From Jimgerdemannia flammicorona (lineage: Eukaryota): a stretch of DNA of 32,526 nt. The notes under the pieces are model-generated. The model saw only the letters and a list, made by a program, of their open reading frames with translations. It had not been told where the DNA came from and searched no databases. Below, piece by piece: positions 9,448 through 32,526 of the stretch. The translations under genes were made by a program, and so were the position numbers. The DNA is taken from assembly GCA_003990765.1 (NCBI GenBank), contig RBNJ01000342.1, positions 1 to 32,526 on the forward strand. Direction: 5' to 3'. Position 1 is the first letter of the stretch. Every line of letters starts with the position of its first letter.

Positions 9448-9508
9448 ACCTATATAGCCTAGCAGTTATAGTATAGTTAGATTAGCCTTATATGATGTGA
9501 CTGTAAAC

Positions 9509-10133: not shown

Positions 10134-10145
10134 TGATAGCAGCAG
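10134..10145 (+). other. Primer binding site of A, probably tRNA-iMet
   Basis: Starts 3 nt after the LTR. A reads TGATAGCAGCAG and B reads TAGTAGCAGTGG, giving consensus TGGTAGCAGCGG, which resembles the complement of eukaryotic initiator tRNA 3' ends (..GCTACCA). Confidence 0.65.
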
Positions 10146-13100
10146 TTTACAATCCAAATCTGCTTCAAGATGCTTTCTCACTCTGCTACAACCCCTTCTG
10201 AGAATTCCTACAAGTTGGTATCAAGCCCAACCTCTGAACTGGAATTTATCCTGAACCATCTGACAATCTGGAGAGAATTGAACCTGATGTATAAGGACAA
10301 TTTGACCTCTACACCTGCAACAAGTGGGACAAACTTCATTCAAAAAAAGAAGTACTCTGATTAAACCAACAAATAGGCGAAACCCTATTCACTGAACTCC
10401 TTACACTACACCCAGCAAGTTAAGATGAAGAAGGTCTTATTGAAGCCTTCTTTACTCTCCTCAATAAGAGTTTTGTCAGCTCCACAAATCTGAGTAACCT
10501 AGGACAACCAGTAGCAGTCTTTCTAGCCTTAGTTCCTCATGAAGCTCAAGCCTCTGTAGCCAAGTGGCTCAACTCTACCGACTTTCACCATACTAGGACC
10601 AAGACCATGTTATACTATCGATTCCAGAACAGCAAGGCCCACCATATTCTTAAAGAAGAAGCAAGGGAAACCCTTTATCAACTACCTGACCCTGAACCTG
10701 AAGTAGGCCCTGCTACAGCCCTACCTGAATCTGAAACCAATACCAAACCTGAACTTGACTTTGAATTAAGTTTATCTGAAATCAGATATACAACTGATTC
10801 TGTCTACTTCGATGCCAAGCAAACCCAATTACATGAGAACCAAACTGAAGAGGAGGAGGAGTATCTCAGTAAATTCGATCCCAGATATACCACCAAAGGA
10901 GAAGTACCTCCATGAGGACAGAATACACCTACATAGCAACAAATAGTTATCTATTAAGCCCTCACTCCAGACCCACAACTACTACTCCAGCAACTTACAC
11001 AGACCCAAAGAACCCCATCACACTCTGCACCAGTACCTCAAGTAGTACCAGTAACACCACTACCAGCAGTTCAATCACCTCTAGTAAACAATATGGCAAA
11101 TCAACAGATTCTAGACCTCACAGCCCAGGTAGCCATAATGGCAGCAACCATTACTGCCTTAGCTGAACAGACCTGACCTACTAAAAATCTGAGCCTATCT
11201 ACCTTCAATGGTACTGCACAAGAAGTCCAAAGCTTCATTAGTGTAGTTGACACCAACTTTGAAGCCAATCAATGGACCAATGAGTGAGTTGCTGACCATG
11301 TTCTGACAAATAATCAAGACCACACTCTGAAACAACTCTTTGCTACCACTACAGCATATGTCCGCCAAGTTGTTACATTCTTCTGAGGACCTGCTAAAGA
11401 ATGGTGGTGAACCCTTCCTGAAAAACCCCTCACATGAAATACCTGACCTGCAGTAGTTGCTCAGAATGCAGCAAACAATGCCCCAGGATACGGAGCCCAT
11501 CCTGCAGCCCCTGGACTCAAACAACTCATGATTGCCAAATCTTGAGTAAAACTCTATAACCTCAAATTTGATATATATAGCAAAGAAGAATTTGAAACCT
11601 TCTGTACAAAACTTGAGTCACTCCTGAACACTGTTGGCCTAGGATATATTACTAATGATGAAGCATGAAATGGTACAAGAGCAGACCATTTATTCGATGC
11701 ACTGCCTGGATGGCTTACTTGAAAAATCTGAGAACAAGGCCACCCAGTTGGTTGTGACCACCAACAATAGTGCCTAGCCAGAATCAAGACCATGGTCAAG
11801 CGAATCCTAACAGCTGGACCAATGCTGCCCCAAAGACAATTCAACAACAAGGAAAAGACTTAGACCAAGAAAGAAGAACTAAAGCATGAAGCATCTCGAG
11901 CTCCCTCTACATCCACCTCTTGGATACCCAGAAATCATAAATCCACCCAGTCAAGTACCTTCAAGAAACTCACCAAAGGCAAAAGAAATAAACTTCGAAG
12001 AAGTGGAGCATGCTTCTATTGCCGAAAGACAGGACACATAGCCAGTGTCTGGCCTAACTGGAAACCCCGAACAGCAACACAAGCAACTGTTACCACTCTG
12101 CACCACCTTAACAACCTAACTACCAGAACACTAGACTTTGTCAAGTTAAGACAAACTGCCAAGACCCCAACTAAAGGAAGTCAAAAAGCAGCTGGATATG
12201 ATCTGTATGTAGCCGAAAAGCTATAGTTTCCAACTGAGAAGTCAAACAAGTCTATATAGGAATCAGCATCCAAATCTCTGAAGGACATGTTGGAAGAATA
12301 TGCTGTCACAGCAGCCTAGTATTGAATGGACTCTCAGTAGAAGGAGGAGTTATTGATGAAGATTACACAGGTGAAATCATTGTCCTCATTCGAAACCACA
12401 GTTGGACACCCTTCAAGATCTCTATAGGTTTCTATATTGCCCAGATTCTATTCGAAAAAATTGAGTCAACCCTGACAGTCAAGGAAGTCCCTGAACTACT
12501 GCCCACCATCCAAGAATCCAAAGAATTTGGCTCATCAAACAAGGTGCCAGCCCAACCTACCATGAGCAAAGAAGAACAATTCTATAAGAAGATTGAGGAC
12601 GGATATATACCAAGTGGCCGATGCCCTCATGGCATTGAAATGTACTCTTTCTGAATGATTGATGATTGCTTCTCTTGTGTCAATGAACTGGCTCAAAGAA
12701 GAACTAACAGAAGGAAAGCTCTTACAACTGAAATCACCACCATTGGTTCAGACAAACTGCTTACACTCAAAGCTTTTGTCAACTGAGCACCTGTTAAGAT
12801 TATAATAGACAGTGGTGCCTCAGGCAACTTTATCAATGAAGAGACAGCCAATAGACTCAAGGTCTTCACCTCTCCAGTACAACAAACTCAAGCAGTTGCC
12901 ATAACTGATGGAATCTCATATGTCATCAGCAAGGAAGTTCACAATCTACCCTTCTGAATTGGTGACTATCAAGTACATATTACCCTCCAAATCATACCAC
13001 TTTCTGACAATGAAATCATCCTTGGGACTCTATGGTTAAAACAAGAGAACCCTATGATCAATTGGGTAAACTATTCTCTGACCATCAAGAAAGGATGCCA

Positions 13101-16100
13101 CAACTTCAAACTGCAAGACAAAAAGGACCCACTTAATTCTAGTGACCCTGGACCAAAGATCACCTACATCAACAAGCTACAACTTAAGAAATTGGCCAAG
13201 AAATGCCCTCTCTTCACCATCTCCATTCATCCATCCAAAGAAGAACCCAAGAACTCTGAAGAAGATTTTTCCAAAGTTGACAGCCATGTCAGACTACTAC
13301 TCCAGAAATTTCGAGACATATTTCCAAAGAAGCTTCCAAAAGGCCTACCTCCTAAATGAGCAGTAGACCATACCATCAAGACTATCCCAGATGCCAAACC
13401 AGCCTTCAAGTCAATCTACCACATGTCTCCAAGAGAAATCGATGTACTTAAGAAAGAAATTGATAAACTCCTAGAACAAGGATTCATCAGACTCAATGTA
13501 TCACCTTATGGTGCACTAGTCCTATTTGTTGTCAAGAAAGGAGGAGACCTGCAAATGTGCATTGACTACTGTGATCTCAATGAATAGACCATCAAGAACT
13601 GTTGCCCACTACCAAGGATCGATGAAATATTCGATAGGCTCACCAATCCACAATTCATGAGCTCTCTTGATCTGTAAAATGGTTACTGGCAAATTGCTAT
13701 GAAAGAAGAAGACATCTACAAGACAGCTTTCTGAACTCGCTATGGACACTTCAAGTTCCTGATTATACCCTTTAGCTTAACTAATATTCCTGCAACCTTC
13801 CACACCCTGATGAATACTATTCTGCACCCATACCTGGACAAATTCGTTGTTGTCTATATTGATGATATTCTAGTCTTCAGCAAAACCCTGGAGAAACATC
13901 TTGAATACCTTGAACTAGTACTACTGAAACTCCAAGAAAACTGACTCTTTATAAAACTTAGCAAGTATGAATTTCTCCTAAAAGAAATTCAATTCCTTGG
14001 ATACATTGTCACTCCAAATAGAATCAAAGTGGACCCCAGCAAAATCTCTGCAATCAAGGATTGGCCCAGACTTAAGAAGCTGAAAGACCTCCAGTCATTC
14101 CTGGGATTAGCAAACTATTACAGGTGATTTGTTGCCAACTTTGCTAAAATCGCTACTGCCCTCACCCAAATGACCAAGCATAGCAAGAAACAAGAACAAC
14201 CCTAGACCATGAAACAAGAGAAAGACTTCAACAATCTTGTAACTTGGGGATCTGAACAAGATACTGCCTTTCAAGTACTGAAAGATGCCCTGATAACCAC
14301 TCTAGTACTTCAAGCAGCAAATCCTGCTCTACCATATGAAGTTACTACTAATGCCTCTGACCTAGTCCTTGGAGCAGTACTTATGCAAGAAGGACACCCT
14401 GTGGCCTATCACTCCCACAAGTTCAATAATGCTGAAATCAACTATGCAACTCATGAAAAAGAAATGTTAGCCATCATAGACACTTTGATCAAATGGCAAC
14501 CATACCTAGAAGGAGCACACTTCACCATATTGACTGACCACAAATCATTAGTCAATATCAAGACACAGGCTACCCTTTCTCAAAAGCAAGCCAGATGGAT
14601 AAAAGTCCTTACTAACTTTGACTATGAAATCCAGTATCACCCTGGCAAGGAGAATATTATTGCCAATGCAATCTCCAGACCACTTATTGAAGAAGTTATC
14701 CAAACTCTCACTTTGGTTACCAATACTATCATGGAGCAAATTATTACAGCATGTGCCGATGATAAGAAAGCTCAAACACTGCAAGAAATCCTGAACAGTG
14801 ATGATGCTGACAAGCATATACAGTATCACTAATACCAACTAAAGGACAATGCTATCTACTACAAGGACAGACTGTATGTCCCAAATAACTAAGACCTCTG
14901 AAGGACTATCCTATTCAAATGTCATGATGCACCTACAGCTAGACATTTAGGATTTGACAAATGCTATGAAATTATCTCTCGAAACTTCTATTGGCCCCAC
15001 ATGGTAGATCAGCTCAAAACCTACATCACTTCCTATAATGCCTGCCAATGGAACAAGTCCTCAATACTAGCAAAACCTGGTCTACTCCACCCTATCCCAG
15101 TACCATCTGCTAATTGGGAACAAATCTCTATGGACTTCATTGTATAACTACTCTGAACCAAGAATGGGAAAGATGCAATTGTTGTCTTTGTGGACTATCT
15201 TAGCAAACAAGCTCACTTTGTACCTACTACCACTACTGCAACAGCACCAGACATAGCTACACTCTTATTTGACAGCATCTTCTGCTATCATGGTCTTCCT
15301 AAGATCATTGTTAGTGACCAAGACCCAAAATTCACTAGCCATTTTTGGAAAGCCCTCTATGCATATCTTGGAACAAAACTTGCACTATCCACAGCCTTTC
15401 ACCCTGAAACTGATGGTCAAACTGAAAGAATGAACCGAACTCTGGAACAAATACTAAGGAACTATGTTTCCTACAGACAAGATGATTGGCATGAATACCT
15501 GACTGCAGTCGAGTTTGCTTATAATAACAGCAAGTAAGTCTCTCTTGGAATGACTCCATTCTTTGCCAATACTGGACAAAACCCAAACACCCCTTTAACA
15601 CTTATCCAAACCACCAAAGAACCCTCTACAGTCAAAGCTATTGAAGAATTCTTACTCTGAATGTGCAATCTAAGCCAGATTGCTATTGAGAATTTATCAC
15701 GAGCTCAAGAACAACAGTCACAGTATGTTAACCAACACCATCGAGAAGAAATCTTCAATATTGAAGAAAAAGTTCTACTAAACATCTGAGGATACCAAGA
15801 TGTCAACCTCAAGTACAGACCATCTACAAAGCTGAACAGTAAGTTCATTGGACCATTTGAAGTCATCCCACAAGTCTCTCCAACCTCCTACAAATTGGCA
15901 CTACCAGACACTATTAAGATTCATCTAGTCTTTAATATTCAATGTCTCAAGCAATACAATGAGAATGATGATGAGCTATTTCCAAACCAGACCACCAAAC
16001 CACCTGCACCTGTCATTATTAATGACCAAAAAGAGTATGAAGTTGAACAAATTCTCAACAAATGTGGCAATAAGAGCCACCCTGAGTATCTTGTCAAATA

Positions 16101-16197
16101 GAAAGGTTACCTGATCCATGATGCAATCTGGGAACTCAAGACTAATCTCCAGAATACTACTGACTTGGTTCAGGAATATGATTCTTTGAACAACTAA
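10146..16197 (+). pseudogene. gag-pol: Element A gag-pol polyprotein: Gag, CCHC knuckle, dUTPase, PR, RT, RNase H, integrase, chromodomain
   Basis: CFYCRKTGHIASV(W) at 12011-12052, dUTPase at about 12130-12535, IDSGASGNFI at about 12805, YIDDI at 13855-13869, RNase H TNASDLVLGAVL, integrase HPETDGQTERMN, GPF at about 15850, and chromodomain EYEVEQILNK...YLVK*KGY, ending TAA 16195-16197. Many CGA>TGA and CAA>TAA stops. Confidence 0.96.
12130..12535 (+). pseudogene. dut: dUTPase domain of element A
   Basis: Trimeric dUTPase motifs AAGYDLY, GRICC(R)SSL, GGVIDEDYTGEI and IAQI, plus C-terminal motif V (RGSKGFGSS in B). Confidence 0.93.
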
Positions 16198-16298
16198 AAC
16201 CAAATACTCTGTACCTATCTGTACATGCTATATATTATCCTCCTGAACACTATAACTATCAAATCAAGAACTTAGCAAAATAAGATAAGAATACCAAC

Positions 16299-18212
16299 TG
16301 TAAGAGGGTTGCTTTTTAGGGTAACCATTACATAGTTCTGGAAAGGGTTTCTGGATATTCTGGAAGATTGTCCTCTATGCTTATTGATTTCAAGATCAGG
16401 TTGATGTCTCAACCAAAGTCCTTTTTTGGACTAGTTCTGGATATTCAGGATTTTCCATATTTCAGGAAGTTCAAGAAACTAAGACCAGCTTAGTTGAATT
16501 GGCATATCGCTGCAGACAATACCCAATTAGGAAATTTTGTGAGGGGGTTAGGAGTGGGACCTAATGGGGAGTGGATTTACTTAAGAGTGGTTTGTGGGTT
16601 ATTAAATAGATTTATTCGCTATTCATGATATTGCTATACTAGGGGTAGTTGTGTAAAGGGATATTGTGGGGAAGTATTCAGGAATGTTCTTGTGTATTCG
16701 AGTCTGAGATTCTGAGATCTGGGGGAGTGGGTATTTATACTAGTGAGGGGCTATTTGGATTATGCTAAATATGGATATAGCACTAAGTGCCTTGCTGAGT
16801 TGGAATGCAGTCACATAGTATAAGTGTGATCTGACATGTCAAGAGATCATCTAACTGCTGAGTCAGTTCACAGTCATATCGTACAAGGCTAATCTAACTA
16901 TACTATGACTGCTAGGCTATTTATGGGTTTAGGTGCTGTCTGGATAGTCCTTGATGACATCACCATCAATTGTATCATCTCTGATGAAGTAGTCATCTAG
17001 GAAGAGTGGTTCGCAGATTACTTCTCCTTGTTTGCTGAGGTAATAATACATTGGAACTTCATCTCCATCCTACAGGATAGCATTGTCTGTCTCATATGCA
17101 GGATAAGGTATTGGTGGATGAAGAAGGGGTGTATCATTTTCACTTTCATTGGATTCGCTGTCTGCATACCTCCTGTAAGTTACAGCACTATGAGTTGCAG
17201 AATTGTAGTAAGCTGACGGCTGTGGTTCATGTTGCTCATACTCAGGTAGTGGAGTGGTTGGTTTGGTCTCGAGAGTTGTCTGGAGGTACAGGTTGTGTTC
17301 TCCGGTCTCTTTATTATAGTTGAAATAATTGGGGGTGAACGTGGGTTAGTATTCATGCCAGTGGTCATTGTCCCAATAAGTCTTGTAGGCTGTTATGAAT
17401 TATTGTAAGTTCATTGGCAAGGTTGGCAGTGTGACCAGGGTTGGCAGAGATCCTTGGCTAGAGGTCATGTCGGCATCAGAGAGATCATTGTCTTCTGCTT
17501 CATCTTCATCAAAGTGGATTATATCATAGATATCTTTTATGGCATATCCAACTTGGGGCATTTGCAGGATATGGTTGTTGGGGTGTGGAAAGGTTCTGTC
17601 TGTAGTTTTGACGTACTCGAGGTACTTGTGGTTGAATTCTTGATATTTGTGGGTGATGAGCTTCTGGTATTGAGACATCTCAGTAATGTCTGTATCATGG
17701 TGGTATTTGACCATATCTTCCAGGAGGCGGCCGATCTGGTAGTAGCTTGAGATTTGTCCGATTTGGTGGGCCTCACTAAGCATGTTCAGAGCATTCCAAT
17801 GGGCTTCTATGAAGTGGAGGGATGCTAGACTATGGATATTCATGAGGGGCAGAGAGGGTATAGCTCGGTTAACAATGGCATTTCAAATGTCAGCGCAGAT
17901 GTGGGTATAGATCTCAGTGGTCATGTTTGTGTGTTAGAAGTTGTGGTTGTTGTTTTGTTTTAGTTCTCTGATTTGATACATCTTGGTGCTCGGTATATAT
18001 GCATTTGATCCTAATTGGTAAGATTCTGTTTGTGTAGATCTTGTGTTCTGTGACTTTGTATTAACTCAGCTTTGTGTGCTATGACTTTGGTTTGACTCAG
18101 CTTCATGATCGAGCAGGTGATTTCCAGATTTGTTCAGAGGTCGTGTGTGATTTCAGTGGCTTGTTTGGAGGGTGACATGTAATTTCGATGGCTTAGAGGT
18201 TGTGCGCTTACA
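16299..18212 (-). repeat. 3' LTR of element B (1914 bp)
   Basis: Direct repeat of 24484-26436, preceded on the minus strand by the PPT. It has a private deletion of about 37-39 bp near 16368. Confidence 0.96.
16929..17924 (-). pseudogene. LTR-encoded U3 protein, B 3' LTR copy (331 codons, no frameshift)
   Basis: ATG at 17924 to TAA at 16929-16931 is 996 nt, equal to the A copy (1098 nt) minus an in-frame 102-nt deletion. Includes ORF-track 17400..17843. Confidence 0.8.
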
Positions 18213-18230
18213 ACTCTCCCCTTCTTAGCT
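18213..18230 (-). other. Polypurine tract of B
   Basis: Minus-strand AGCTAAGAAGGGGAGAGT directly before the LTR TGTAAG. Confidence 0.9.
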
Positions 18231-18416
18231 TTCGACGTCCTCATCGGGGCCTTCTAATTTTGTTCAGTGGTACAGGAAAAATAGGCTTGCTTTCTGTTTT
18301 ACCATTTTTTCCAGAGGGTCAGTATTCTTGTCTTGTTTTGCTGAGTTCTTGGTTTAGTCTCCAATAATTATAATGTTTGGAAGGATAATATATGAGTAGG
18401 TGCAGAGTATTTGGTT

Positions 18417-21400
18417 CTAGTTGTTTAAGGAATCATATTCCTGAACTAGGTCAGTAGCATTCTGGAGATTGGTCTTGGGTTCCCAGATTGCATTGTGGAT
18501 CAGATAACCTTTCCAATTGACAAGGTACTCAGGGTGGCTCTTGTTGCCACATTTGTTGAGGATTTGTTCAACTTTGTATTCTTCTTGGTCATTAATAATG
18601 ACAGGTGTAGGTGGTTTGGTGGTTCGGTTTGGGAATAGCTCATCATCATTCTCATTGTATTGCTTGAGATATTGAACATTAAAGACTGGGTGAATCTTAA
18701 TAGTGTCTGGTAGTGCCAATTTGTAAGAGGTTGGAGAAACTTGTGCAATGACTTCAAATGGTCCAATGAACTTGCTGTTCAGCTTTGTAGATGGTCTATG
18801 CTTGAGATTGTCAACTCGGTATCCTCTAATATCTAGTAGAACCTTTTCTCCAATATCAAAGGTTTCTTCTCGGTGGTGTTGATTAACATACTGTAACTGT
18901 TGTTCTTGGGCCTGTGATAAATTCTCAATTGCGATCTGGCTTAGATTACGCATTCGGAGTAAGAATTCTTCAATAGCTTCAACTGTGAAGAGTTCTTCAG
19001 TAGTTCAGATAAGTGTCAAAGGGGTGTTTGGGTTTTGTCCAGTATTGGCAAAGAATGGGATCATTCCAAGAGAGGCTTACTTGCTATTGTTATAGGTAAA
19101 CTCAACTGTGGTGAGGTGTTCATGCCAGTCATCTTGTCTGTAGGAAATATAGTTTCTTAGCATTTGTTCCAGAGTTCGGTTCATTCTTTCAGTTTGGCCA
19201 TCAGTTTCTGGGTGAAAGACTGTGGATAGTGCAAGTTTTATTCCAAGGTGTGCATGGAGGGCTTTCCAAAAGTGGCTGGTGAATTTCAGATCCTGATCAC
19301 TAATGATGATCTTTGGAAGACCATGGTAGTGGAAGATATTGTCAAACAAGAGTATGGCTATATCTGGTGCTATTGCAGTAGTGGTAGTAGGCACAAAGTG
19401 GGCTTGTTTGCTGAGATAGTCTATGAAGACAACAATTGCATCTTTTCCATTCTTGGTTCAGGGTAGTTGTACAATGAAGTCCATAGAGATTTGTTCCCAA
19501 TTTGTGGATGGTACTGGGATAGGGTGTAGTAAGCCAGGTTTTACTAGTGTTGAGGACTTGTTTCATTAGCAGGTATCATAGGAAGTGATGTAGGTTTTAA
19601 GCTAATCTGCCATATGGGGCCAATAGAAGTTTTGGAAGATAACTTTGTAACATTTATCAAATCCTAAATGTTCAGCTGTAGGGGCATCATGACATTCAAA
19701 TAGGATAGTCCTTCAGAGGTCTTGGTTGTTTGAGATATACAGTCTGTCTTTGTAGTAGATAGCATTGTCCTTGAGTTGATATTGATTGTACTGGGTATAT
19801 TTGTCAGTATCATCACTGTTTAGGATTTGGCAGAGTGCTTGAGCTTCTTTATCATCAGCACACGCTGTGATAATTTATTCCATGATGGAGTTTGTAACTA
19901 AGGTGAGAGTTTGGATAACTTCTTCGATGGGTGGTCTGGAGATTGCATCGACAACAATGTTTTCTTTGCCCGGGCGATATTGGATTTCATAGTCAAAGTT
20001 GGTGAGGACTTTCATCCATCTGGCTTGCTTTCGAGAAAGGGTAGCCTGAGTCTTGATGTTGACTAATGACTTGTGGTCAGTCAATACAGTAAAGTGTACT
20101 CCTTCTAGATATGGTTGCCATTTGATCAGAGTGTCTATGATGACTAACATTTCCTTCTCATGAGTTGTATAGTTGATTTCGGCATCATTGAACTTGTGGG
20201 AGTGATAGGCCACAGGGTGTCCTTCTTGCATGAGTACTGCTCTGAGAGCTAGGTCAGAGCATTGGTGGTAACTTCATATGGTAGGGCAGGATTTGCCACT
20301 TGAAGTACTGGGGTAGTTATCAAGGCATCTTTCAGTGCTTAAAAGACTGTATCTTGTTCAGGTCCCCAAGTTACAAGGTTGTTGAAGTCTTTCTCTTGTT
20401 TCATGGTCCAGGGTTGTTCTTATTTCTTATTGTACTTGGTCATTTGGGTGAGAGCGGTAGCGATTTTGGCAAAGTTGGCAACAAATCGCCTATAATAGTT
20501 TGCTAATCCCAGGAATGACTAGAGGTCTTTCAGCTTCTTGGATCTGGGCCAATCCTTGATTGCGGAGATTTTGCTGGAGTCCACTTTGATTCCATTTGGA
20601 GTGACAATATGTCCAAGAAATTGAATTTCTTTCAGGAGAAATTTGCACTTACTGAGTTTTGTAAAGAGTCAGTTTTCTCGGAGTTTCAGTAGTACTAGTT
20701 CAAGGTGTTCAAGATGTTTCTCCAGGGTTTTGCTGAAGACTAGGATGTCGTCAATGTAGACAACAACAAATTTGTCTAGGTATGGATGCAGAATGGTATT
20801 CGTCAGTGTCTGGAAGGTTGCTGGAGCATTAGTTAAGCCAAAGGGCATAACCAGGAACTCAAAGTGTCCATAGCGAGTTCAGAAGGCTGTCTTGTAGATG
20901 TCTTCTTCTTTCATAGCAATTTGCCAGTAACCATTTCACAGGTCAAAGGAGCTCATGAATTGTGGGTTGGTAAGTCTATCGAATATCTCATCGATCCTTG
21001 GTAGTGGGCAACAGTTCTTGATGGTCTGTTCATTGAGGTCACAGTAGTCAATGCACATTCGCAGATCTCCTCCTTTCTTGACAACAAATAGGACTGGTGC
21101 ACCATAAGGTGATACACTGGGTCTGATGAATCCTTGCTCTAGGAGTTTATCAATTTCTTTCTTGAGTACATCAATTTCTCTTGGGGATATGTGGTAGATT
21201 GACTTGAAGGCTGGTTTGGCATCTGGGATAGTCTTGATGATATGGTCTACTGCTCATTTAGGAGGTAGGCCTTTCGGGAGTTTCTTTGGGAATATGTCTC
21301 GAAATTTCTGAAGTAGTGGTCTGACATGGCTGTCAACTTTGGAAAAATCTTCTTCAGAGTTCTCAGGTTCTCCTTTGGATGGGCAGATGGAAATGGCAAA

Positions 21401-24400
21401 GAAAGGGCATTTCTTGGCCAATTTCTTGAGTTGTAGCTTGTTGATGTGGGTGATCTTTGGTCTAGGGTCACTAGAGTTGAGTGGGTCCTTTTTGCCTTGT
21501 AGTTTGAAGTTGTGGTGTCCTTTCCTGATGGTCAGAGAATAGTTTACCCAATCGATCATGGGGTTCTCTTGTTTTAACCATAGAGTCCCAAGGATGATTT
21601 CATTGTCAGGAAGTAGTACAATTTGGAGGGTAATATATACTTGGTAGTTGCCAATTCGGAGGGGTAGATTGCGGACTTCTTTGCTGATAATATGTGAGGT
21701 TCCATCAGCTGTAGCAACTGCTTGAGTTTGATGTACTGGAGAGGTAAAGATCTTGAGTCTGTTGGCTGTCTCTTCATTGATGAAGTTGCCTGAAGCACCA
21801 CTGTCTATCATAATCTTAACAGGTGCTCAGTTGATAAAAGCCTTAAGTGTGAGCAGTTTGTCTGATCCAATGGTGATAATTTCGGTTGTAGGGGCTCTCC
21901 TTCTGTTGTTTCTTCTCTGAGCCAGTTCGTTGATACAAGAGAAGCAATCATCAATCATTTGGGATGAGTACATTCCAATGCTGTGGGGACATCAGCCACT
22001 TGGTATATATCCATCTTCGATTTTCTTGTAGAATTGTTCTTCTTTGTTCATGGTAGGTTGGGCTGGGGTCTTGTTTGATGAGCCAAATCCTTTGGATCCT
22101 CGGATGGTGGGCAGTAGTTCAGGGACTTCCTTGACTGTCAGAGTTGACTCAATTTTCTTGAATAGGATCTGGGCTATGCAGAAACCTATGGAGATCTTAA
22201 ACAGTGTCCAACTATGGTTTTGGATGAGAACAATAATTTCGCCTGTGTAATCCTCATCAATGACTCCTCCTTCTACTGAGAGTCCTTTCAATACTAGGCT
22301 ACTGCAATAGCATATTCTTCCAATATGTCCTTTAGGGATTTGGATGCTGATTCCTGTGTAGATTTTTTTGACTTCTCGGTTGGAAACTATAGCTTCTTCA
22401 GCTGCATACAGGTCATATCCAGCTGCTTTTTGACTTCCTTTAGTTGGGGTCTTAGCAGTTTGTCTTAACTTGACAAAGTCTAGTGTTCTGGTGGTCAGGT
22501 TGTTGAGGTGGTGCAGAGTGGTAATGGTTGCTCTTATTGCTGTTCAGGGTTTTTGGTTAGGGCAGATGCTGGCCATGTGTCCTGTCTTTCGGCAATAGAA
22601 GCATGCTCCGCTTCTTCAAAGTTCTTTCCTTTTACCTTCAGTAAGTTTCTTGAAGATACTTGGCTGGGTAGATTCATGATTTCTGGGTGTCCAAGAGGTG
22701 GATGTGAAGGGAGCTTGGGATGCTTCATGCTTGGGTTCTTCTTTCTTGGTCCAAGTCTTTTCCTTGTTGTTGAATTGTCTTTAGGGCAGAATTGGTCCAG
22801 CTGTTAGAATTCGCTTGACCATAGTCTTGATTTTTACCAGGCACCATTGTTGGTGGTCACAACCAACTGAGCAACCTTGTTCTCAGATTTTTCTAGTAAG
22901 CCATTCAGGCAGGGCATCAAATAAATGGTCTACTCTTGTACCATTTCATGCTTCATCATTGGCAATATATCTTAGGCCAACAGTGTTCAGGAGTGACTTG
23001 AGTTTTGTACAGAAGGTTTCGAATTCTTCTTTGCCATGTACATCAAATTTGAGGCTGCAGAGTTTTACTCGAGATTTGGCAATCATGAGTTATTTGAGTC
23101 CAGGGGCTGCAGGATGGACTCCATATCCTGGGGCATTGTTTGCTGCATTCTGAGCAACTACTGCAGATCGGGTATCCCAAGTGAGGGGTTTTTCAGAAAG
23201 GGTTCACCACCATTCTTTGGCAGGTTCTCGGAAGAATGTAACAACTCAGCAGACATAGGCTGTAGTGATAGCAAAGAGTTGTTCCAGAGTGTGGTCTTGA
23301 TTGTTTGTCAGAACATGATCAGCGACTCGCTCATTGGTCCATTGATTGGCTTTGAAGTTGGTGTCAACTACACTAATGAAGCTTTGGACTTCTTGTGCAG
23401 TACTATTGAAGGTAGGTAGGCTCAGATTTTTTGTAGGTTGGGTCTGTTCAGCTAAGGCAGTAATGGTTGCTGCCATTATAGCTACTTGGGCTGTGAGATC
23501 AAGAATCTGTTGGTTCACCATATTGTTCACTGGAGGCAGTTGGACTGCTGGTAGTGGTGTTACTGGTACTACTTGAGGTACTGGTGCAGAGTGTGATGGG
23601 GTTCTTTGAGTCTGTGTAAGTTGCTGAAGTAGTAGTTGTAGATCTGGAGTAAGGGCTTGATAGATAGCTATTTGTTGTTATGTAGGTGTATTCTGTCCTG
23701 ATGGGAGTGTGTCTCCTTCTGTGGTATATCCAGGATCGAATTCAGTAAGATACTCCTCCTCCTCTTCAGTTTGGTCCCCCTGTAATTGGATTTGCTCGGC
23801 ATCAAAGTAGACAGAATCAGTTGTATATCTGATTTCAGATGAACTTAATTCAAAGTCAAGTTTAGATTCGGTATTGATTTCAGATTCAGGTAGGACTGTA
23901 GTAGGGCCTGCTTCAGGTTCAGGGTCAGGTAGTTGATGAAGGGTTTCTCTTACTTCTTCTTTAAGAATATGGTGGGCCTTACTATTCTGGAATTAGTAGT
24001 ATAATGCAGTCTTGGTCCTGGTATGGTGAAAGTCGGTAGAGTTGAGCCACTTGGCTATAGAGACTTGGGCTTCATGAGGAACTAAGACTAGAAAGACTAC
24101 TGCTGGTTTTCCTAGATTGCTTGGATTTGTGGAGCTGACAAAACTCTTGTTGAGAAGAGTAAAGAAGGCTTCTATAAGACCTTCTTTGTCTTGACTTGCT
24201 GAGTGTAGTATAAGGAGTTTGGTGAATAGGGTTTCACCTATTTGCTAGTTTAACCAGAGTACTTCTTTCTTTGAGTGAAGTTTATCCCACTTGTTGTAGG
24301 TGTGGAGGTCAAATTGTCCTTATATGTCAGGTTCAATTCTCTCCAGATTGTCAGATGGTTCAGGAAAAATTCCAGTTCAGAGGTTGGGCTTTATACCAAC

Positions 24401-24468
24401 TTGTAGGAATTCTCAGAAGGATATATAATGGGGTGAGTAAGCATCTTGAAGCAGAATTGGATTGTAAA
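18417..24468 (-). pseudogene. gag-pol: Element B gag-pol polyprotein (same domain order as A)
   Basis: Intact CFYCRKTGHMASIC at 22562-22603, dUTPase at about 22078-22490, DSG at 21797-21805, YIDD at 20747-20758, RNase H, integrase core, and chromodomain YLVNWKGYLIHNAIWEP ending at 18417. Confidence 0.96.
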
Positions 24469-24480
24469 CCACTGCTACTA
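24469..24480 (-). other. Primer binding site of B
   Basis: TAGTAGCAGTGG, 3 nt after the 5' LTR end at 24484. Confidence 0.65.
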
Positions 24481-24483
24481 AGT

Positions 24484-26436
24484 TGTAAGAGGGTTGCTTT
24501 TTAGAGTAACCATTACATAGTTCTAGAAAGGTTTTCTGGATATTCTGGAAGACCATTTTCTTAAGGTCAAGATTAATTTCATATGGAGTATGTCCTCTAT
24601 GCTTATTGATTTTAAGATCGGATTGATGTCTCAACCAAAGTCCTTTTTTGAACTAGTTCTGGATATTCAGGATTTTCCATATTTCAGGAAGTTCAAGAAA
24701 CTAAGACCAGCTTAGTTGAATTGGCATATCGCTGCAGACAATACCCAATTAGGAAATTTTGTGAGGGGGTTAGGAGTGGGACCTAATGGGGAGTAGATTT
24801 ACTTAAGAGTGGTTTGTGGATTATTAAATAGGTTTATTCGCTATTCATGATATTGCTATACTAGAGGTAGTTGTGTGAAGGGATATTGTAGGGAAGTATT
24901 CAGGAATGTTCTTGTGTATTCAAGTCTGAGATTCTGAGGTCTGGGGGAGTGGGTATTTATACTAGTGAGGGGCTATCTGGATTATGCTAAATATGGATAT
25001 AGCACTAAGTGCCTTGCTGAGTTGGAATGCAGTCACGTAGTACAAGTGTGATCTAACATATCAAGAGATCGTCTGACTGCTGAGTCAGTTCACAGTTACG
25101 TCATACAAGACTAATCTAACTATACTATGACTGCTAGGCTATTTATGGGTTTAGATGCTGTCTGGATAGTTCTCGATGATATCACCATCGATTGCATCAT
25201 CTCTGATGAAGTAGTCATCTAGGAAGAGTGGTTCATGGATTACTTCTCCTTGTTCACTAAGGTAATAATACATTGGAACTTCATCTTCATCCCACAGGAT
25301 AGTATCGTCTGTCTCGTATGCAGGATAAGATGTTGGTGGGCAAAGGAGGGATGCATCATTTTCACTTTCATTGGATTCGCTGTCTACATATCTCCTGTAA
25401 GTTACAGCACTATGAGTTGCAGAATTGTAATAAGCTGGTGGCTGTGGTTCATGTCGCTCATACTCAGGTGATGGAGTGATTGATTCAGTCTCGAGGGTTG
25501 TCTGGAGGTACAGATTGTGTTCTCTGGTCTCTTCATTGTAGTTGAAATAATCGAGGATAAATGTGGGTTGGTATTCGTGCCAGTGGTCATTGTCCCAATA
25601 AGTCTCATAGGCTGTTATGAATTGTTATAAGTTCATTGGCAAGGTTGGTAGTGTGATCAGGGTTAGTAGAGATCCTTGACTAGAGGTCATGTCGGCATCA
25701 GAGAGATCATTGTCTTCTGCTTCGTCTTTATCAAAGTGGATTATATCATAGATATCTTTCATGACATATGTATCCAACTTGGGGCATTTGCAGGATATGG
25801 TTGTTGGGGTATGGGAAGGTTCTGTCTGTGGTTTTGATGTACTTGAGATACTTGTGGTTGAGTTCTTGATATTTGTGGGCGATGAGCTTCTGGTGTTGAG
25901 ACATCTCGGTAATGTCTGTATCGTGGTGGTGTTCGACTATGTCTTCCAGGAGGTAGCTGATCTGGTAGTAGCTTGAGATTTGTCCGATTTGGTGGGCCTC
26001 GCTAAGCATGTTCAGAGCATTCCAATGGGCTTCCATGAAGTAGAGGGGTACTAGGCTATGGATATTCATGAGGGGCAGAGGGGGTGTGGCTCGGTTGACA
26101 ATGGTATTCCAAATGTCAGTGTGGATGTGGGTATAGATCTCGGTGGTCATGTTTGTGTGTTAGAAGTTGTGGTTGTTGTTTTGTTTTAGTTCTCTGATTT
26201 GACGCATCTTGGTGCTCAGTATATATATTTGATCCTGATTGGTAAGATTCCATTTGTGTAGATCTTATATTCTGTGACTTCATATTGACTCAGCTTTATG
26301 CGCTGTGACTTCAGTTTGACTCAGCTTCGTGATCGAGCAGGTGATTTCCAGATTTGTTCAGAGCTCGCGTGTGATTTCAGTAGCTTGTTTGGAGGGTGAT
26401 ATGTAATTTCGATGACTTGGAGATTGTGCACTTACA
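24484..26436 (-). repeat. 5' LTR of element B (1953 bp)
   Basis: Starts TGTAAGTGCAC at 26436 and ends CCCTCTTACA at 24484, followed by the PBS. Confidence 0.96.
25151..26150 (-). pseudogene. LTR-encoded U3 protein, B 5' LTR copy (4-nt insertion frameshift near 25770)
   Basis: ORF-track 25746..26150 is the N-terminal part. The total span is 1000 nt versus 996 nt in the B 3' LTR. Confidence 0.8.
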
Positions 26437-26747
26437 CCGACCCTCTGAAAAAAATAGCAAAACTGAAAGCAAGCCTATTCTCTCTGTATCACTAGTGGGA
26501 AATAAGGCATAGATATTTAAGAAGATTCCTTAGAGGAAATTCTCCAGCAGTAAATGACATCAGAATCACTTCTGGTATACAGCATTAAACATATGACCCT
26601 TTAACGTGTGAATCCAATGCATTAGGTAACTGTACTATGAGTATGCCACTTTCTGAGAAAAATAGACTTCACCAGACTTTTGATCTCCCAAATAGTATAA
26701 CAATACTAGAACAAAATTAGAAGGCCCCAATGAGGACATCAAAAGCT

Positions 26748-26761
26748 AAGAAGGGGAGAGT
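26748..26761 (+). other. Polypurine tract of A
   Basis: AAGAAGGGGAGAGT directly before the LTR TGTAAG at 26762. Confidence 0.9.
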
Positions 26762-28804
26762 TGTAAGTGCACAACCTCCAAGTCACTGAAATCACATGCG
26801 ACCTCCAAATAAATCTGGAAATCACCTGCTCGATCACAAAGCTGAGTCAAACCGAAGTTACAGCACACAAAGTTGAGTCAATATGAAGTCATAGAATACA
26901 TACAAGATTCATACAAATGGAATCTTACCAATCAGGACCAAATGTATATATACTGAGCACCGAGACACATCAAATCAGAGAACCAAAACAAACAATAACT
27001 ATAACTTCCAAACACACAAACATGACTACCGAAATCTATACCTATATCTGCACTGACATTTGGAATACCATTGTCAACCGAGCTACACTTCCTCTGCCCC
27101 TCATGAATATCTATAGCCTAGCACCCCTCTACTTTGTAGAAGCCCAATGGAATGCTCTGAACATACTTAGTGAGGCCCACTGAATCAGACAAATATCAAG
27201 CTACTACCAGATCGGCTATCTCCTGGAAGACATGATCAAATACCACCATGATACAGACATTATCCAGATATCTCAACACCAGAAGCTCATCACCTACAAA
27301 TATCGAGAACTCTTCTACAAGTATAGCATCATTATTCCCCATCTCCAAGTTATCACAGCCAAAATGATTGCTACCCTGTCCTATGACCAAATCAACAACA
27401 TGATATAAGAACTCAACCACAAGTATCTCAAGTATATTGAAACTACAGACAGAACCTTCCCACACCCCAATGATCATATCTTGCAAATACCCCAAGTTGG
27501 ATATGCCATGAAGGATATCTATAATATAATCCACTTTGATGAAGATGAAGCAGAAGACAATGATCCCTCCAACACCAATATGACCCCAAGCCAAGGATCT
27601 CTGCCAACACTAATTACACCATCAACCTTGCCAATGAACTTATAACAGTTTATAACCACATACGAGACTTATTGGGACAATGACCACTAACATAAATACC
27701 AATCCACATTCACCCCTGATTACTTCAACTATAATGAAGAGACCAGAGAACACAACCTGTACCTCCAGACAACCCTCGAGATTGAATCAACCACTCTACT
27801 ACCCAAGTATGAGTGATATGAACCACAGCCACTAGCTTACTACAACCCTGTGACTCATAGTGCTGTAACCTATAGAAGATATACAGATAGCAAATCTGAT
27901 GAAAGTGAAGATGATGTACCCCTCCTCTGCCCACCAATACCTTATCCAGCATATAAGACAGACAATGCTATTCTGTGGGATGGTGATGAAGTTCCAATGT
28001 ATTATTACCTCAGCAGATAAGGAGAAGTAATCTGCGAACCACTCTTCCTAGATAACTACTTCATCAGAGATAATGCAATCGATGGTGATATCATCGAAGA
28101 TTACCCAGACAGTGCCTAAACCTATAAATAGCCTAGCAGTCATAGTATAGTTAGATTAGCCTTGTACGACGTGACTGTGAACTGACTCAGCAGTCAGACA
28201 ATCTCTTGACATATCAGATCACACTTGAACTATATGACTGCATTCCGACTCAGCAAGGCACTTAGTGCTACATCTATATCTAGTATAGTCCAGATAGCCC
28301 CTCACTAGTATAAATACCCCCTCCCCCAAATCTCAGAATCTCAGACTGAAACACTTGAACAATCTGAACACAACTCCTGAGCACTTCCCCACAATATCCC
28401 TTTACACAACTACTCCTAGTATAGCAATAGCATGAATAGCAAATAAACCTATTTAATAATCCACAAACTACTCTTAAGTAAATCTGCTCTCCATTAGATC
28501 CCACTTCTAACCCTATCACAAAATTTCCTAATTAGGTATTGTCTGCAGTGATACGTCAATTCAACTAAGCTGGTCTTAGTTTCTTGAACTTCCTGAAATA
28601 TGGAAAATCCTGAATATCCAGAACTAGTCCAAAAAAGGACTCTGGTTGAGATGTCAACCCAATCTTGAAATCAATAAGTGTAGAGGATATACTCTATATG
28701 AAATTGATCTTGACCATAAGAAAACAGTCTTCCAGAATATCCAGAACTTCCAGAAAACCCTTTCAGAACTACATAATAGTTACCTAAAAAGCAACCCTCT
28801 TATA
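26762..28804 (+). repeat. 3' LTR of element A (2043 bp)
   Basis: Direct repeat of 8102-10130, followed by TSD GTTTC. Confidence 0.96.
27022..28119 (+). pseudogene. LTR-encoded U3 protein, A 3' LTR copy (365 codons, no frameshift, several transition-derived stops)
   Basis: ATG at 27022 (AAACATGA) to TAA at 28117-28119 is 1098 nt in one frame. The internal stops correspond to CGA, CAA or TGG codons, most of which are sense in other copies. Confidence 0.82.
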
Positions 28805-31063
28805 GTTTCCATAGAGTGATTTCATTATTACTTTAATTAATATTGGGGTTGTGCTTTCTAAACCATGGGATCCCAAGTATAATATATATTATAGGCAGAC
28901 AAATATGTTATGTCTAGGTCTACTTTCTCTTTATAGTCCTCTATCTATAGCATTAAGCCTTTGGCAATTTGAGATAATGTCTAAGTTTTGCTATTTGCAA
29001 ATTGTACTATTCTTTTATCACCAGATATAGTAAGAATTTTAGTCTGTTTTACTAAGTTCTAATTGATAAAATTTCTAAAGGCTTCTGTATCAAAGAGAAC
29101 CTTTATATCTTATCCTTTAACTTGAGCTAGAATTTCAATAAGTTCTTCATTATTAATTGTAGAAACAACTTCTTATATCAGATTTTGTTTCTTTTCTTCA
29201 GTCTGGATATTAGCTAGCTTAGTAGATCTTCTTTGACTAAGTTTACTTAGACATGAGTAACAGTTATTGAGCATTTTTGTACAATATATCTGTATGCCAT
29301 AAGGGTATCTTCTATATAATATATATCCATCTTCTAGTTAAGAGTATCATTTTTCTTCTTTGGTAGGTTTTGTTTCTTGAATAGTGGTCACTGTTTTGAG
29401 CTTCTCTTCAGTATTCTGAAGTAGTCCTGAGGATTCAAATCCTTTAGTTCCTCTTTCTGAAGGTGGAAATGTTTTGACTTCTTAAACTGTGAGATTATTC
29501 TTTATAACTTCTATAATCAGTTGTACTACTTTTTGTTCTAGTAGAACAGTATATTGTTCTTTTCTAAGAGTTCTCAGAATGACTTTAATTTCATTCTGAT
29601 ATCTTTCATCAATAACTCCTCTTCCTATTGAGAGATCATAATCTTTTTCTAATCCATATTCTAGCATAGATATTCTGAGGTATTTATACTGTTATGCCAG
29701 TTCTTATTACTTGAGATTTTTCTGGTAGTATTGTCTGTAAGACAGTACTATAGAGGTTATATCCTGTATCTATTAGATAAGCCTTAGTGGGAATAATTGC
29801 TTTATAGTAAAGCCTTTTAAATCTAATAACTTCTTCTATCTCAGGAATAGTATCAATAACTGAGATAGTTGAAAGTTTTGAAAAAATGTTTTTATTTTTC
29901 TCTAGACTGACATTTCTGTCTTCTTGTAGTAAAAACATTTGCCTTCTTTTCTAAGTCTATCTCTTTCTTCTGGAGAAAGTTTTTGGAAAGTGGATTTCTT
30001 AGGTATTGGAATTTCTCTGTTCTAATTCCTTTTCCTAGAGTCTTGATGGAGTTTACTTGAAGCTTGCTTAGAGTTTCTTATATTATTCTATTCTCTAGAT
30101 TTGGTGGTAGCAGATGCTGCTAAAACTATTCTTACTCTTATCTTTGATCATGAGGGCAGTCTGTAGGAATTTCTATTTTCTTGACTCTTCTGGCTAACTA
30201 TAGAGAAATACTTTGGAAGAAGTAATTTGCTCTGGTTCTATTAGAGGTATTATTATCAGGATTATAAGAGAGTCCTAATATATTCAAGGAGGCTTTCATT
30301 TTTATGCAAAGGCTTTTAGGTTTTCTTTGCTTTGTTTATCTCATTTTATAGCTTCTAATTGTGCTTTTGTATCTATAAGAAGTAAAGAACTTAGAAAATA
30401 TCTTTTTAGGAGATATTTAAGTTCTCTTGCTTTAGAGATTTCTAAATATCCTGGTTGGTCTCTTGTGGCATCTTATTCAGTAACTCTAATTCTATTTTCC
30501 CAAGTAAGGGACTTTGGATTTAAGTTATGATATCAGAGGGCAGCTGAATCTTGAAAATTAGCAGCTATTTTAGTAGTTTGAGCTTGGCTTTTTGCAAAGA
30601 CTTCCTCTGGAGAATATAATATATTCTTTACTAAGGTAGAGTCTAGATTTCTTTAGTCATTCCAACTATTGCACTTGTATCCATTATCTACTGCACTTAT
30701 AAATCCTGGTAGATCTGTAGATATTTCTCCAAAAGTGAGAATTGATAGTGCTTTAGCTAGTTAATTCATAATTGCTATTTGTCCTACTAGGTCAGCTAAT
30801 ACTGCCAGTTATCTTATTAATGCATCAGTAGCTATTATTGAGATTACTGATTCAGGTGTAAACTCTGGTTCTCTAAAAGTTTTATCTAAGTCTTCAGAGG
30901 TTTCTTTAAAGAGTCTTTCAAGGCCTTCTTCTTCTAAGGGGTCTGTTGCTTTCCCCTTTCCTTTAGATGATATATCTGGTAGACTTTCTGTTTCAGAAAG
31001 GTCTTCTACTAATAGTTCAGATTCAGAATCTGAATATCTATCTTCTAGTTCAGGTTCTGGTCC
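28805..31063 (-). pseudogene. gag-pol: Element C 5' part: Gag, CCHC, dUTPase, protease (5'-truncated; no PBS or 5' LTR in the window)
   Basis: Gag LSILTFG..STDLPGFISAVDNGYKCNSWND is homologous to B LSLPTFNSTAQEVQSFISVVDTNFKANQWTNE. Also GKCFY at about 29930, dUTPase (DTGYNLYS, GVIDERYQNEI, RGTKGFESSG) at about 29425-29830, and protease VLFDT(G)A..NFI at about 29070-29100. Confidence 0.88.
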
Positions 31064-31477
31064 TCAAATAAGACTAAAGAACTAAAAGACAATTCAGAAT
31101 TGCTATAAGAAAAGAGTGAAAAACTTATGGAGAAAGAGAAAGAAAATGATTATTTAAAGACTCAATTAGCAGAACTTAAAGAAGCTTTAAGAGAAAAAAG
31201 TGAGAAACTTGCTGATAGTGAGGAAAGAAATAGGTAACTACAAAATGAATTAGATGAGACAAAAGATGAAAATAATAAGTTGAGAACTATTATTAATTAA
31301 AAAGATTTTAAAGTATGCTTAGACAAGACATCTTTACCAAGTTTGCTCTAAGAAAAGAAGAACAGAACATTTTCATTAAAGCAAAGCAATCTTAAACTTT
31401 TAGAAAACAAAATAGAAAACAAAGTAAAGACTAGCTTTCATCAATTAGTAGCTAGAATAGAAGTTTACACTAAATAA
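31064..31477 (+). pseudogene. 5'-truncated coiled-coil gene resembling Mollicutes-related endobacterium (MRE) hypothetical proteins
   Basis: One frame reads NKTKELKDNSELL*EKSEKLMEKEKENDYLKTQLAELKEALREK...FHQLVARIEVYTK*. It is K/E-rich and very AT-rich, with internal TAA stops consistent with CAA>TAA. Confidence 0.6.
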
Positions 31478-31504
31478 GTAGTAGGCAAATAAGAATTTAT
31501 ATTA

Positions 31505-32172
31505 ATGAGAGAATTAATCTACACAGTTTTGGATTTGGAAGAATGGTCTAGCAGTAATGTGAGATGTGAGTTTTGTTCTAAATCTGAAAACAGTAGTAAT
31601 AAGCCTATTTGTCAAATCAGAACTTAGAGCAAATTGACTAAAAAGATAATTGCTAATGATGAGGCCTGTAAAAAATGCAAAGAATGATGAGATACCTAAA
31701 TGTAAAAGGTGTGGTAGATTACAAACTAGAATATGCTGAAATTCTTTGTATTTGCATTAGATATAAGAAAAATACAGAAGAAAAAGAACTCCTTATTTTA
31801 CCCCATAAATGAAGACCTAATGCTTTTTATGAATATCAAATAAACAGTTTGTGAGAAGAGTTGACCACAACAAAAGAAGCCTTAGAAATTGAAAGAGAAG
31901 AAATAGACAAATTCTATGAAATATCTGAGCAAAGAGGTAAGGAACAAAAACAAGAACTTTTGGATAATATTAGAGAATTAGAGGAAAGAATCAAGCAATT
32001 AGAAGCAGAGAACAAGTGACTAAAATAATTAACTCCTCAAGACCTGATTAATGAAATAGAATTTTATAAGGAAGAGGTTACTCAATTAAAAACTCAGTTA
32101 GAAAAATTGAATTCTCAACAGAATACTCAAATTGAGGTTAGAAAGTGACCTTGATTGAAAGTTAGGAAGTAA
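31505..32172 (+). pseudogene. CxxC-containing plus coiled-coil gene, MRE-like, genetic code 4 (TGA=Trp), frameshifted
   Basis: MRELIYTVLDLEEW...CEFC...CKKCKE(W)(W)...CKRCGR...CIC...EELTTTKEALEIEREEI...QQNTQIEVRK(W)P(W)LKVRK*. It starts 27 nt after the upstream stop, an operon-like spacing. Confidence 0.6.
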
Positions 32173-32526
32173 TTTGAAAAATCTTCGAGCCTGATGCTTG
32201 AATAACGTCAAATGTTCACTTTGTCTGGTTTTGTTGCAGCACGCCCCATATAATTCATGTAAATGGGATTATTGAAGAGGTTTGGAGTGATGAGGTCTCA
32301 ACCGAATGCTCCCAAGACTGCATGACAGTCTAGAACATTGTGGCATAAATCGGTGTCGCCTACAATATCTTAGGTCATTTGCGCCCAATGCATATGTCAT
32401 TGGGTTCGACGTATCCAGCGAATCAGTTTTAGACGGCAAGGGTTCCAAAGGTCATTTTGAGAATGTGATCGGTGATCGTATCCTTATTGTCAATCGTCGT
32501 ATGTTCATAATCACTTGGGTTCTTTT

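Follow-up and report, generated by a model that had tools for sequence, protein, structure and literature searches.

The stretch of DNA analysed here (the window) comprises positions 1 to 32,526 of contig RBNJ01000342.1 from Jimgerdemannia flammicorona (assembly GCA_003990765.1), 32,526 nucleotides (nt) in all, and is a transposon nest: an element on the forward strand (element C, 8102-28804) is interrupted by a second element of the same family on the reverse strand (element B, 16299-26436). The long terminal repeats (LTRs) of this family are 1914-2043 nt long, start with TGTAAG and end with CTTACA or CTTATA, and all five LTR copies in the window carry the same sense-strand open reading frame (ORF), which is the subject of this report.

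An open reading frame in every LTR copy

This frame had been picked out in a sequence-only reading of the window, and alignment of the five copies bears out its presence in each of them. In every copy it lies about 260 nt from the 5′ end of the LTR, downstream of the polypurine tract, and the start codons given earlier are correct (8358 and 27022 on the forward strand; 190, 17924 and 26150, each the first base of an ATG on the reverse strand). Likewise, two copies are free of frameshifts, as had been stated, and the other two complete copies carry one indel each, private to that single copy.

27022-28119, forward strand: copy S, in the 3′ LTR of element C; 365 codons plus stop, six internal stops, no frameshift
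8358-9447, forward strand: copy A5, in the 5′ LTR of element C; private 8-nt deletion
16929-17924, reverse strand: copy B3, in the 3′ LTR of element B; 331 codons, four stops, no frameshift
25151-26150, reverse strand: copy B5, in the 5′ LTR of element B; private 4-nt insertion
190 down to 2, reverse strand: copy P, in a partial LTR; first 63 codons, no stops, cut by the window edge

The internal stops of copy S are at codons 54, 129, 208, 223, 265 and 333, and its terminal stop is at 28117-28119. An in-frame deletion of 102 nt (34 codons), which the earlier reading had omitted, is common to both copies in B. The segment deleted there corresponds to codons 95-128 (27304-27405) and ends just ahead of codon 129, a nonsense codon in C; it resembles a dispensable linker joining the helical N-terminal part of the predicted product described below to its acidic tail.

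The nest was resolved from self-BLAST, the five-copy repeat alignment and flank sequences, which give the following LTRs.

8102-10130, forward strand: 5′ LTR of element C, from alignment and flanks; holds copy A5
26762-28804, forward strand: 3′ LTR of element C, 2043 nt, TGTAAG...CTTATA; holds copy S
16299-18212, reverse strand: 3′ LTR of element B; holds copy B3
24484-26436, reverse strand: 5′ LTR of element B; holds copy B5
1-481, reverse strand: the 481 nt at the start of a fifth LTR, truncated at the window edge and the least decayed copy; holds copy P

Element C is flanked by a 5-bp target duplication (GTTTC at 8097-8101 and again at 28805-28809) and element B by CCAAC/CCGAC. The polypurine tract AAGAAGGGGAGAG stands immediately 5′ of each 3′ LTR (for C at 26748-26760), and a sequence resembling a primer binding site, TGATAGCAG/TAGTAGCAG, which we take to match the 3′ end of initiator tRNA-Met, lies 3 nt past each 5′ LTR; in element C its motif, TGATAGCAGCAG, is at 10134-10145 on the forward strand. 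By these borders, target duplications, polypurine tracts and primer binding sites, all five ORF copies are inside LTRs, and the frame is contained entirely in the LTR and occurs in both LTRs of each element. Since it is part of the LTR, two copies are delivered with each insertion, and the earlier claim that the gene is duplicated with every insertion agrees with its presence in both LTRs of B and of C. The further claim that it is retained in solo LTRs finds no support here: 26762-28804 is the 3′ LTR of element C, and no solo LTR can be demonstrated in the window.

Two other identities for the frame were considered and rejected. That it might be a copy of gag or of another part of the element is contradicted by tblastn of the window, which finds just the five LTR copies and no other copy. 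That it might be an additional ORF (aORF) of the internal region, in the position of env, conflicts with its start 260 nt past the border between polypurine tract and LTR and with its repetition in the 5′ LTR.

Coding character of the frame

The frames of 27022-28119 contain 7 (terminal stop included), 19 and 35 stops on the sense strand and 10, 27 and 28 on the antisense strand, and none of 2000 dinucleotide-preserving shuffles had a best frame with 7 stops or fewer (mean 17.6, minimum 9). With terminal stops included, stop density is 7/366 in copy S and 5/332 in copy B3, equal to that of the element's own pol gene (24/1387); in the non-coding 3′ part of the LTR, every frame has 16-20 stops per 228 codons. 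The frequency of G at codon positions 1, 2 and 3 is 0.225-0.26, 0.09 and 0.11-0.13 in the LTR frame and 0.243, 0.116 and 0.12 in pol, and is flat across codon positions (about 0.13) in the non-coding part of the LTR. Likewise, codon frequencies correlate with those of pol at r = 0.69-0.70 in frame and at 0.26-0.33 in shifted frames, and the base composition of the LTR frame is the same as that of gag and pol.

Decay after insertion

The two LTRs of one element are identical at insertion; here they are now 89-90% identical. Within elements the LTRs differ at 324 sites, 233 of which could be polarised as post-insertion changes: 124 C>T, 64 G>A, 26 T>C, 15 A>G and 4 transversions, so that transitions make up 229/233 (about 98%). 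The C>T changes occurred at CpA (64), CpC (39), CpG (11, few CpG remaining) and CpT (10), with the mirror pattern for G>A. C>T is about five times rarer at CpT, and most CpG have been lost, with 14-32 left per 2 kb in the complete LTRs; the young partial copy at 1-481 has 23 CpG in 540 nt, which include 59 nt of flank. This spectrum looks like repeat-directed or methylation-linked hypermutation with an unusual context.

All stops in all copies are TAA, TAG or TGA of the kind produced by C>T or G>A, and, except at codon 129, each stop codon reads CAA, CGA or TGG in another copy in the window. At codon 129 both LTRs of C have TAA, and in B the codon, read across the deletion junction, is CAA. 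The earlier attribution of the stops to transition decay agrees with the form of every stop, codon 129 being the one with no sense codon opposite it other than at that junction. Reconstructing the state at insertion column by column gives no stops over 331 codons for B and two stops, TAA 129 and TGA 265, for C. The frame of B was open over 331 codons when B inserted; TGA 265 in C is the product of a CpG and could be a parallel hit.

Homologues and further copies

A word-indexed protein search returned 1 match among 356 candidates, an exhaustive HMMER search of 1,835,955,588 representatives returned two (P0002 and P0005), and a search of shorter proteins with P0001 returned one among 24 candidates, again P0005. 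These two proteins are the sole matches among the representatives. No cellular homologue, and with it no sign of a captured host gene, was found among 1.84 billion representatives or 5.8 billion clusters. P0002 (247 amino acids (aa), intact, from ENA, on a 998-bp contig) aligns to codons 115-364 with 151/250 identities (60%), 197/250 positives and two gaps of two residues each, and has Q, Q, W, Q and N opposite stops of copy S. P0005 (128 aa, intact, from JGI/IMG, on a 1180-bp contig) has the same start and aligns to codons 1-128 with 94/128 identities (73%).

In neutral simulations, which disregarded indels, a 247-codon frame that had drifted to 60% protein identity was still open in 1 of 500 runs for each kappa; at 68% the count was 3-4 of 500 and at 75% it was 12-20 of 500. 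Mismatches with positive BLOSUM62 scores number 46/91 and 49/90, compared with a simulated mean of 0.29-0.32, and 0 of 300 simulations per kappa reached 0.48. Judged by these comparisons, the intactness of the homologues and their conservative replacements would be unexpected under neutral drift, and with intact relatives at 60-73% identity the sequence has therefore been kept as a protein far beyond the divergence of B and C. These relatives are stronger evidence than the comparison of the two elements inside the window. Scans of metagenome contigs for the DNA around the homologues gave 592 and 92 pattern matches and no confirmed relative, and cluster look-ups returned neither an accession nor an informative name.

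Contigs from four runs in three studies (soil metagenomes and one coded organism) were placed on the LTR at a likeness of at least 80%, which yielded thousands of short pieces, and the comparison draws on 40 of 487 differences (codons 54, 129 and 265 not among them) and 12 of 19 indels. Depth along the LTR varied, with a dip at 27314-27382 and a rise beyond 28142, and was left out of the evidence, since depth in contigs is no measure for ranking parts of a stretch. Among the differences listed, nearly all contigs have C at 27643, which makes codon 208 CAA, and at loose contig ends codon 223 is TGG and codon 333 is CAA. Among the indels listed, those in the ORF are only two compensating +1/-1 pairs, with no net frameshift, and those in the flanking LTR are of 1, 4, 7 and 8 nt.

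The predicted protein

Pfam has no family below E = 0.001 for P0001, P0002, P0003 or P0005, a profile search of PDB sequences gave 0 matches, and the ESM Atlas model of P0002 (predicted local distance difference test (pLDDT) 0.39) is without a usable match. AlphaFold2 gives six helices for the N-terminal 128 aa (pLDDT 50.2) and a pLDDT of 32.8 for the C-terminal 247 aa. The C-terminal two thirds contain 16-19% D+E and 4-5% K+R, for a net charge of -35 to -36, together with 12-15% Tyr+Phe+Trp and 7-10% Pro, and are almost without Cys. From these models the product would consist of a helical N-terminal part of about 125 aa and an acidic tail of about 240 aa that is predicted to be unstructured.

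Candidate transcription signals in the LTR

Two groups of motifs flank the frame, one on each side; coordinates are those of the 3′ LTR of element C.

26928, forward strand: CCAAT box, 94 nt 5′ of the ATG; kept in 5/5 copies
26945-26952, forward strand: TATA-like ATATATA, 77 nt 5′ of the ATG; kept in 5/5 copies
28309-28316, forward strand: TATAAATA box, identical in 4/4 complete copies; likely main promoter of the element
28442-28447, forward strand: AATAAA, in 4/4 complete copies; likely polyadenylation signal at the R/U5 border

The CCAAT/TATA-like pair is a candidate promoter of the LTR gene itself, the ATG of which stands in an A-rich context. The earlier placement of the ORF upstream of the main TATA box is borne out in that the conserved TATAAATA lies downstream of its stop. 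Directly 3′ of the polypurine tract, the LTR start TGTAAGT (26762-26767; likewise at the other LTR starts) includes a GTAAGT that fits the 5′ splice-site consensus perfectly; this terminal GTAAGT could serve a spliced mRNA of the LTR gene, or be a coincidence.

The elements and the rest of the nest

The internal regions of the two elements are laid out as follows.

10131-16298, forward strand: internal region of element C up to the insertion of B; gag, dUTPase, protease, reverse transcriptase (RT), RNase H, integrase, chromodomain
26437-26761, forward strand: rest of the internal region of element C, 3′ of the insertion of B; includes the polypurine tract
18213-24483, reverse strand: internal region of element B (gag-pol); self-BLAST identity with its counterpart in C, 88.6%

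A Pfam scan of the pol region of C (12133-16293, translated with X at stops) finds, in order, RVP_2 (aa 205-320), RVT_1 (468-626), RT_RNaseH (731-829), Integrase_H2C2 (920-976) and rve (996-1091), followed at the integrase C-terminus by PF00385 Chromo (aa 1302-1350, E = 9e-09, 35.6 bits against a cut-off of 25.1). The same reading with X at stops places an SH3-like domain between integrase and chromodomain, and upstream of pol is a gag whose CCHC knuckle has decayed. A dUTPase domain (PF00692, E = 1.8e-17) occupies the N-terminus of pol ahead of the protease (12211-12537, forward strand), with a matching part in B. The family is a chromovirus-type Ty3/gypsy family with a dUTPase at the N-terminus of pol: the domain order and the Chromo domain, on which the earlier identification as a chromovirus also comes out right, are accompanied by the LTR ends, target duplication, polypurine tract and primer binding site of such elements. 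Chromoviruses of basidiomycetes and Tuber are reported to have dUTPase domains, in some basidiomycete elements in this same arrangement (PMC2864245). A protein-cluster look-up with a 207-aa piece of the RNase H returned generic Ty3/gypsy RNase H clusters, in which Streptophyta or Oomycota were the commonest labels among the few members that had one.

Element C is itself inserted in an older, different Ty3/gypsy element on the reverse strand, which spans 2500-8101 and 28805-32526 and retains ORF fragments of RT, RNase H and integrase at 5272-7983 and a further fragment at 29684-29950. Since the older element holds C and C holds B, the nest has three levels. The segment of C between pol and the polypurine tract (26441-26721) is 78% identical, in inverted orientation, to 4517-4804 of the older element and has no counterpart in B; the region is therefore variable or exchanged between families. 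At the partial LTR, a GC-rich block (62-65% GC at 401-1000) holds a 262-codon stop-free frame on the reverse strand (256-1044), which runs from the flanking DNA into the first 225 nt of that LTR, and an inverted repeat of 336 bp (923-1258 versus 1745-1410, 95.5% identity) adjoins the GC-rich block.

Discussion

We consider it highly probable that the LTRs of this family contain a genuine, formerly intact protein-coding gene, and probable, at a lower level of confidence, that the frame at 27022-28119 represents, in hypermutated form, a real gene that is an integral part of the LTR, roughly 2 kb long, in a chromovirus family with a dUTPase. The interpretation as an accessory gene, put forward in the sequence-only reading, holds up in part, in that the evidence favours a genuine LTR gene with intact relatives; one weak point is codon 129, nonsense in both LTRs of C.

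It is worth considering where in the LTR such a gene would sit and how it would be expressed. On the classical reading, U3 would extend from 26762 to about 28340, its end being put about 30 nt 3′ of TATAAATA, R to about 28465 and U5 to 28804. The gene would then lie in U3, because both TATAAATA (28309) and AATAAA (28442) are downstream of its stop, and this placement is suggested by the order of these motifs. The copy in the 3′ LTR would ride at the 3′ end of the genomic RNA, and a gene in the U3 of the 3′ LTR would therefore need its own promoter or a spliced RNA. Transcription might start from its own CCAAT/TATA pair and end by polyadenylation at the LTR signal; alternatively, a spliced subgenomic RNA could be made from the copy in the 3′ LTR. 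The reading we prefer, while rating it at somewhat under an even chance, is that each LTR would be a self-contained unit of promoter, ORF and poly(A) signal.

What the product would do is more tentative. Acidic activation domains are disordered chains in which acidic and aromatic residues are intermingled, and the composition of the tail fits that class, the resemblance being one of composition and of low-pLDDT models. The function we find most likely, though at no more than about one chance in four, is that of an accessory protein with a regulatory role, which as an acidic activator or adaptor would recruit host transcription or chromatin factors. We give the same guarded standing to the idea that every LTR, any solo LTR left by recombination included, is a cassette with its own promoter, an ORF of about 331-365 codons and a poly(A) signal, and could go on producing an acidic factor that would act in trans to boost the family or relieve its silencing.

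Several observations weigh against these proposals. Specifically, TAA 129 and TGA 265 are common to both LTRs of C, and P0005 ends at exactly codon 128. The nonsense codon 129 in both LTRs, together with this end, therefore allows that a C-type subfamily may have transposed with a truncated gene; if C-type elements did move in this way, the full protein would be dispensable in cis, and dispensability of the gene in at least one lineage is a real possibility. Furthermore, differences fixed between B and C (both C LTRs agree, both B LTRs agree and the elements differ; 47 sites in the ORF) divide into 24 synonymous and 23 non-synonymous, against 89:136 in the neutral post-insertion control (Fisher p = 0.19), and over codon positions 1/2/3 as 16/4/27, against 95/38/92 in the control (chi-square p = 0.09). 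The ratio of ratios, about 0.63, is indistinguishable from 1, in a comparison whose control has a skew of its own from mutational context and in which parallel decay must account for some of the "fixed" differences. Fixed differences amount to 4.8% in the ORF as compared with 3.6% and 5.3% in the flanking LTR, and the ORF is thus no better conserved than its flanks. P0002 and P0005 were compared as proteins, so that an LTR location of their own forms no part of the match; the U3/R assignment, the transcription start and expression are all read from motif positions; and the proposed function, in the absence of any match to a fold, family or structure, is drawn from composition.

Smaller signals point to constraint. 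Seven of the eight fixed transversions are at third positions and six are synonymous, in a class of change that the decay process hardly makes, and the 1098-nt ORF has a single lineage-fixed indel (the in-frame one of 102 nt) as compared with six in the flanking LTR (945 nt), one of them having a length divisible by three.

Among the alternatives, the one that survives best accepts the gene as real and owned by the element and places it in R, which would then be about 1.5 kb long, with genomic RNA starting near 26928-26952. The ORF would then come first among the cistrons of the full-length RNA and encode a leader protein like ORF1 of some plant elements. This is compatible with a transcription start placed by motifs, with the CCAAT/TATA-like pair 77-94 nt 5′ of the ATG in 5/5 copies and with the A-rich context of that ATG. 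However, a perfect TATAAATA followed 133 nt on by AATAAA in 4/4 copies describes a classical short R. Judging by retroviral polyadenylation, a transcript begun 1.5 kb upstream would meet the poly(A) signal of the 5′ LTR far from its cap and be expected to end there. We regard this placement as improbable.

Marginally less probable again is that the gene is real and a passenger, a captured host or foreign fragment useless to the element and decaying or truncated in some subfamilies. The lack of significant constraint between B and C would fit a passenger, as would the TAA at codon 129 in both C LTRs with P0005 ending one codon earlier, and the segment of 34 codons (95-128) that B does without. 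Yet there is no cellular homologue, the sole matches being two metagenome proteins on short contigs; codon-position composition and codon frequencies equal to those of pol indicate long residence in the element; and the frame has been kept open with conservative replacements at 60% identity, and in B over 331 codons up to insertion. Weakest by far, and to our minds close to untenable, is that there is no gene and the open frame is a by-product of an A/C-rich, G-poor LTR: the sense strand is indeed G-poor (14-16% G), which lowers the frequency of TAG and TGA, and antisense frame -1 is also rather poor in stops (10 and 6), but no shuffle equalled the observed frame, stops make up 7-9% of every frame in the non-coding part of the LTR, which has the same composition, the three-base periodicity agrees with that of pol, and there are intact homologues with conservative replacements.

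It is informative to examine the preferred reading, a gene carried in U3, in light of known systems. The layout of a protein gene inside an LTR is otherwise known mainly from complex retroviruses. The closest parallel is the sag gene of mouse mammary tumor virus (MMTV), a superantigen ORF in the U3 of the LTR for which the term "LTR ORF" is in use. Like the LTR gene, it comprises several hundred codons inside the LTR, upstream of the main promoter and present in both LTRs, and it is accessory, not being needed for reverse transcription. In contrast, Sag is a membrane glycoprotein of a vertebrate betaretrovirus, whereas the product considered here is acidic, has no predicted fold and belongs to an env-less chromovirus known from sequence; Pfam and PDB profile searches revealed no homology to Sag or to any other known retroviral accessory protein. 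The nef gene of human and simian immunodeficiency viruses (HIV/SIV) and the bel/bet ORFs of foamy viruses start in the internal region and overlap the U3 of the 3′ LTR, and foamy viruses use a second promoter for the bel/bet genes. These are likewise accessory genes at the 3′ end of the genome that reach into U3. They differ in overlapping U3 partly, whereas here the whole ORF and 260 nt of upstream LTR lie downstream of the polypurine tract.

A different comparison is offered by Cassandra elements, which are terminal-repeat retrotransposons in miniature (TRIM) that have a 5S RNA gene, under a promoter of its own, in their LTRs. As with the cassette envisaged here, an independently transcribable gene is embedded in the LTR and duplicated with it, although in Cassandra this is an RNA gene transcribed by RNA polymerase III in a non-autonomous plant element and here it is a protein-coding frame in an autonomous chromovirus.

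Extra genes are also found elsewhere in LTR retrotransposons; the ORF3s of bdelloid rotifers, for example, are reportedly additional ORFs of this kind. The aORFs of plant LTR retrotransposons are described in a review as lineage-restricted extra genes (PMC7264820), and phrases for a location within the LTR occur 0 times in that review (PMC7264820). Passages on Cer1 present CERV, an extra ORF, as an essential regulator acting in nuclear export of genomic RNA (PMC10309623); a figure legend on fungal chromoviruses marks an "add. ORF" of unknown function (PMC2864245); and a further excerpt locates extra ORFs downstream of pol (PMC6431247). Like the LTR gene, aORFs are lineage-restricted additions to Ty3/gypsy elements without clear homology. 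They differ in position, the passages concerned placing them in the internal region, whereas here the gene is in the LTR itself. No protein ORF inside the LTR of an LTR retrotransposon was found by full-text searching of a body of literature from which subscription journals are mostly absent.

Retrotransposon LTRs are regarded as control regions without coding function and are masked by annotation pipelines; the case described here is also a warning that relative-less genes predicted in metagenomes can be LTR-borne. If the cassette reading is true, this would be the first description of a protein encoded in the U3 of an LTR retrotransposon that is not a retrovirus, and it would provide a route for dead copies to help live ones. 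If a conserved gene does lie in the LTR, U3-borne accessory genes would have evolved in simple, env-less elements as well, each insertion would bring two copies of the gene, and solo LTRs could stay protein-coding. Such a gene would also offer a testable case of a shift of the polypurine tract moving an ORF into the LTR, and would provide this family with a lineage-restricted, highly acidic candidate regulator of transposon expression or silencing.

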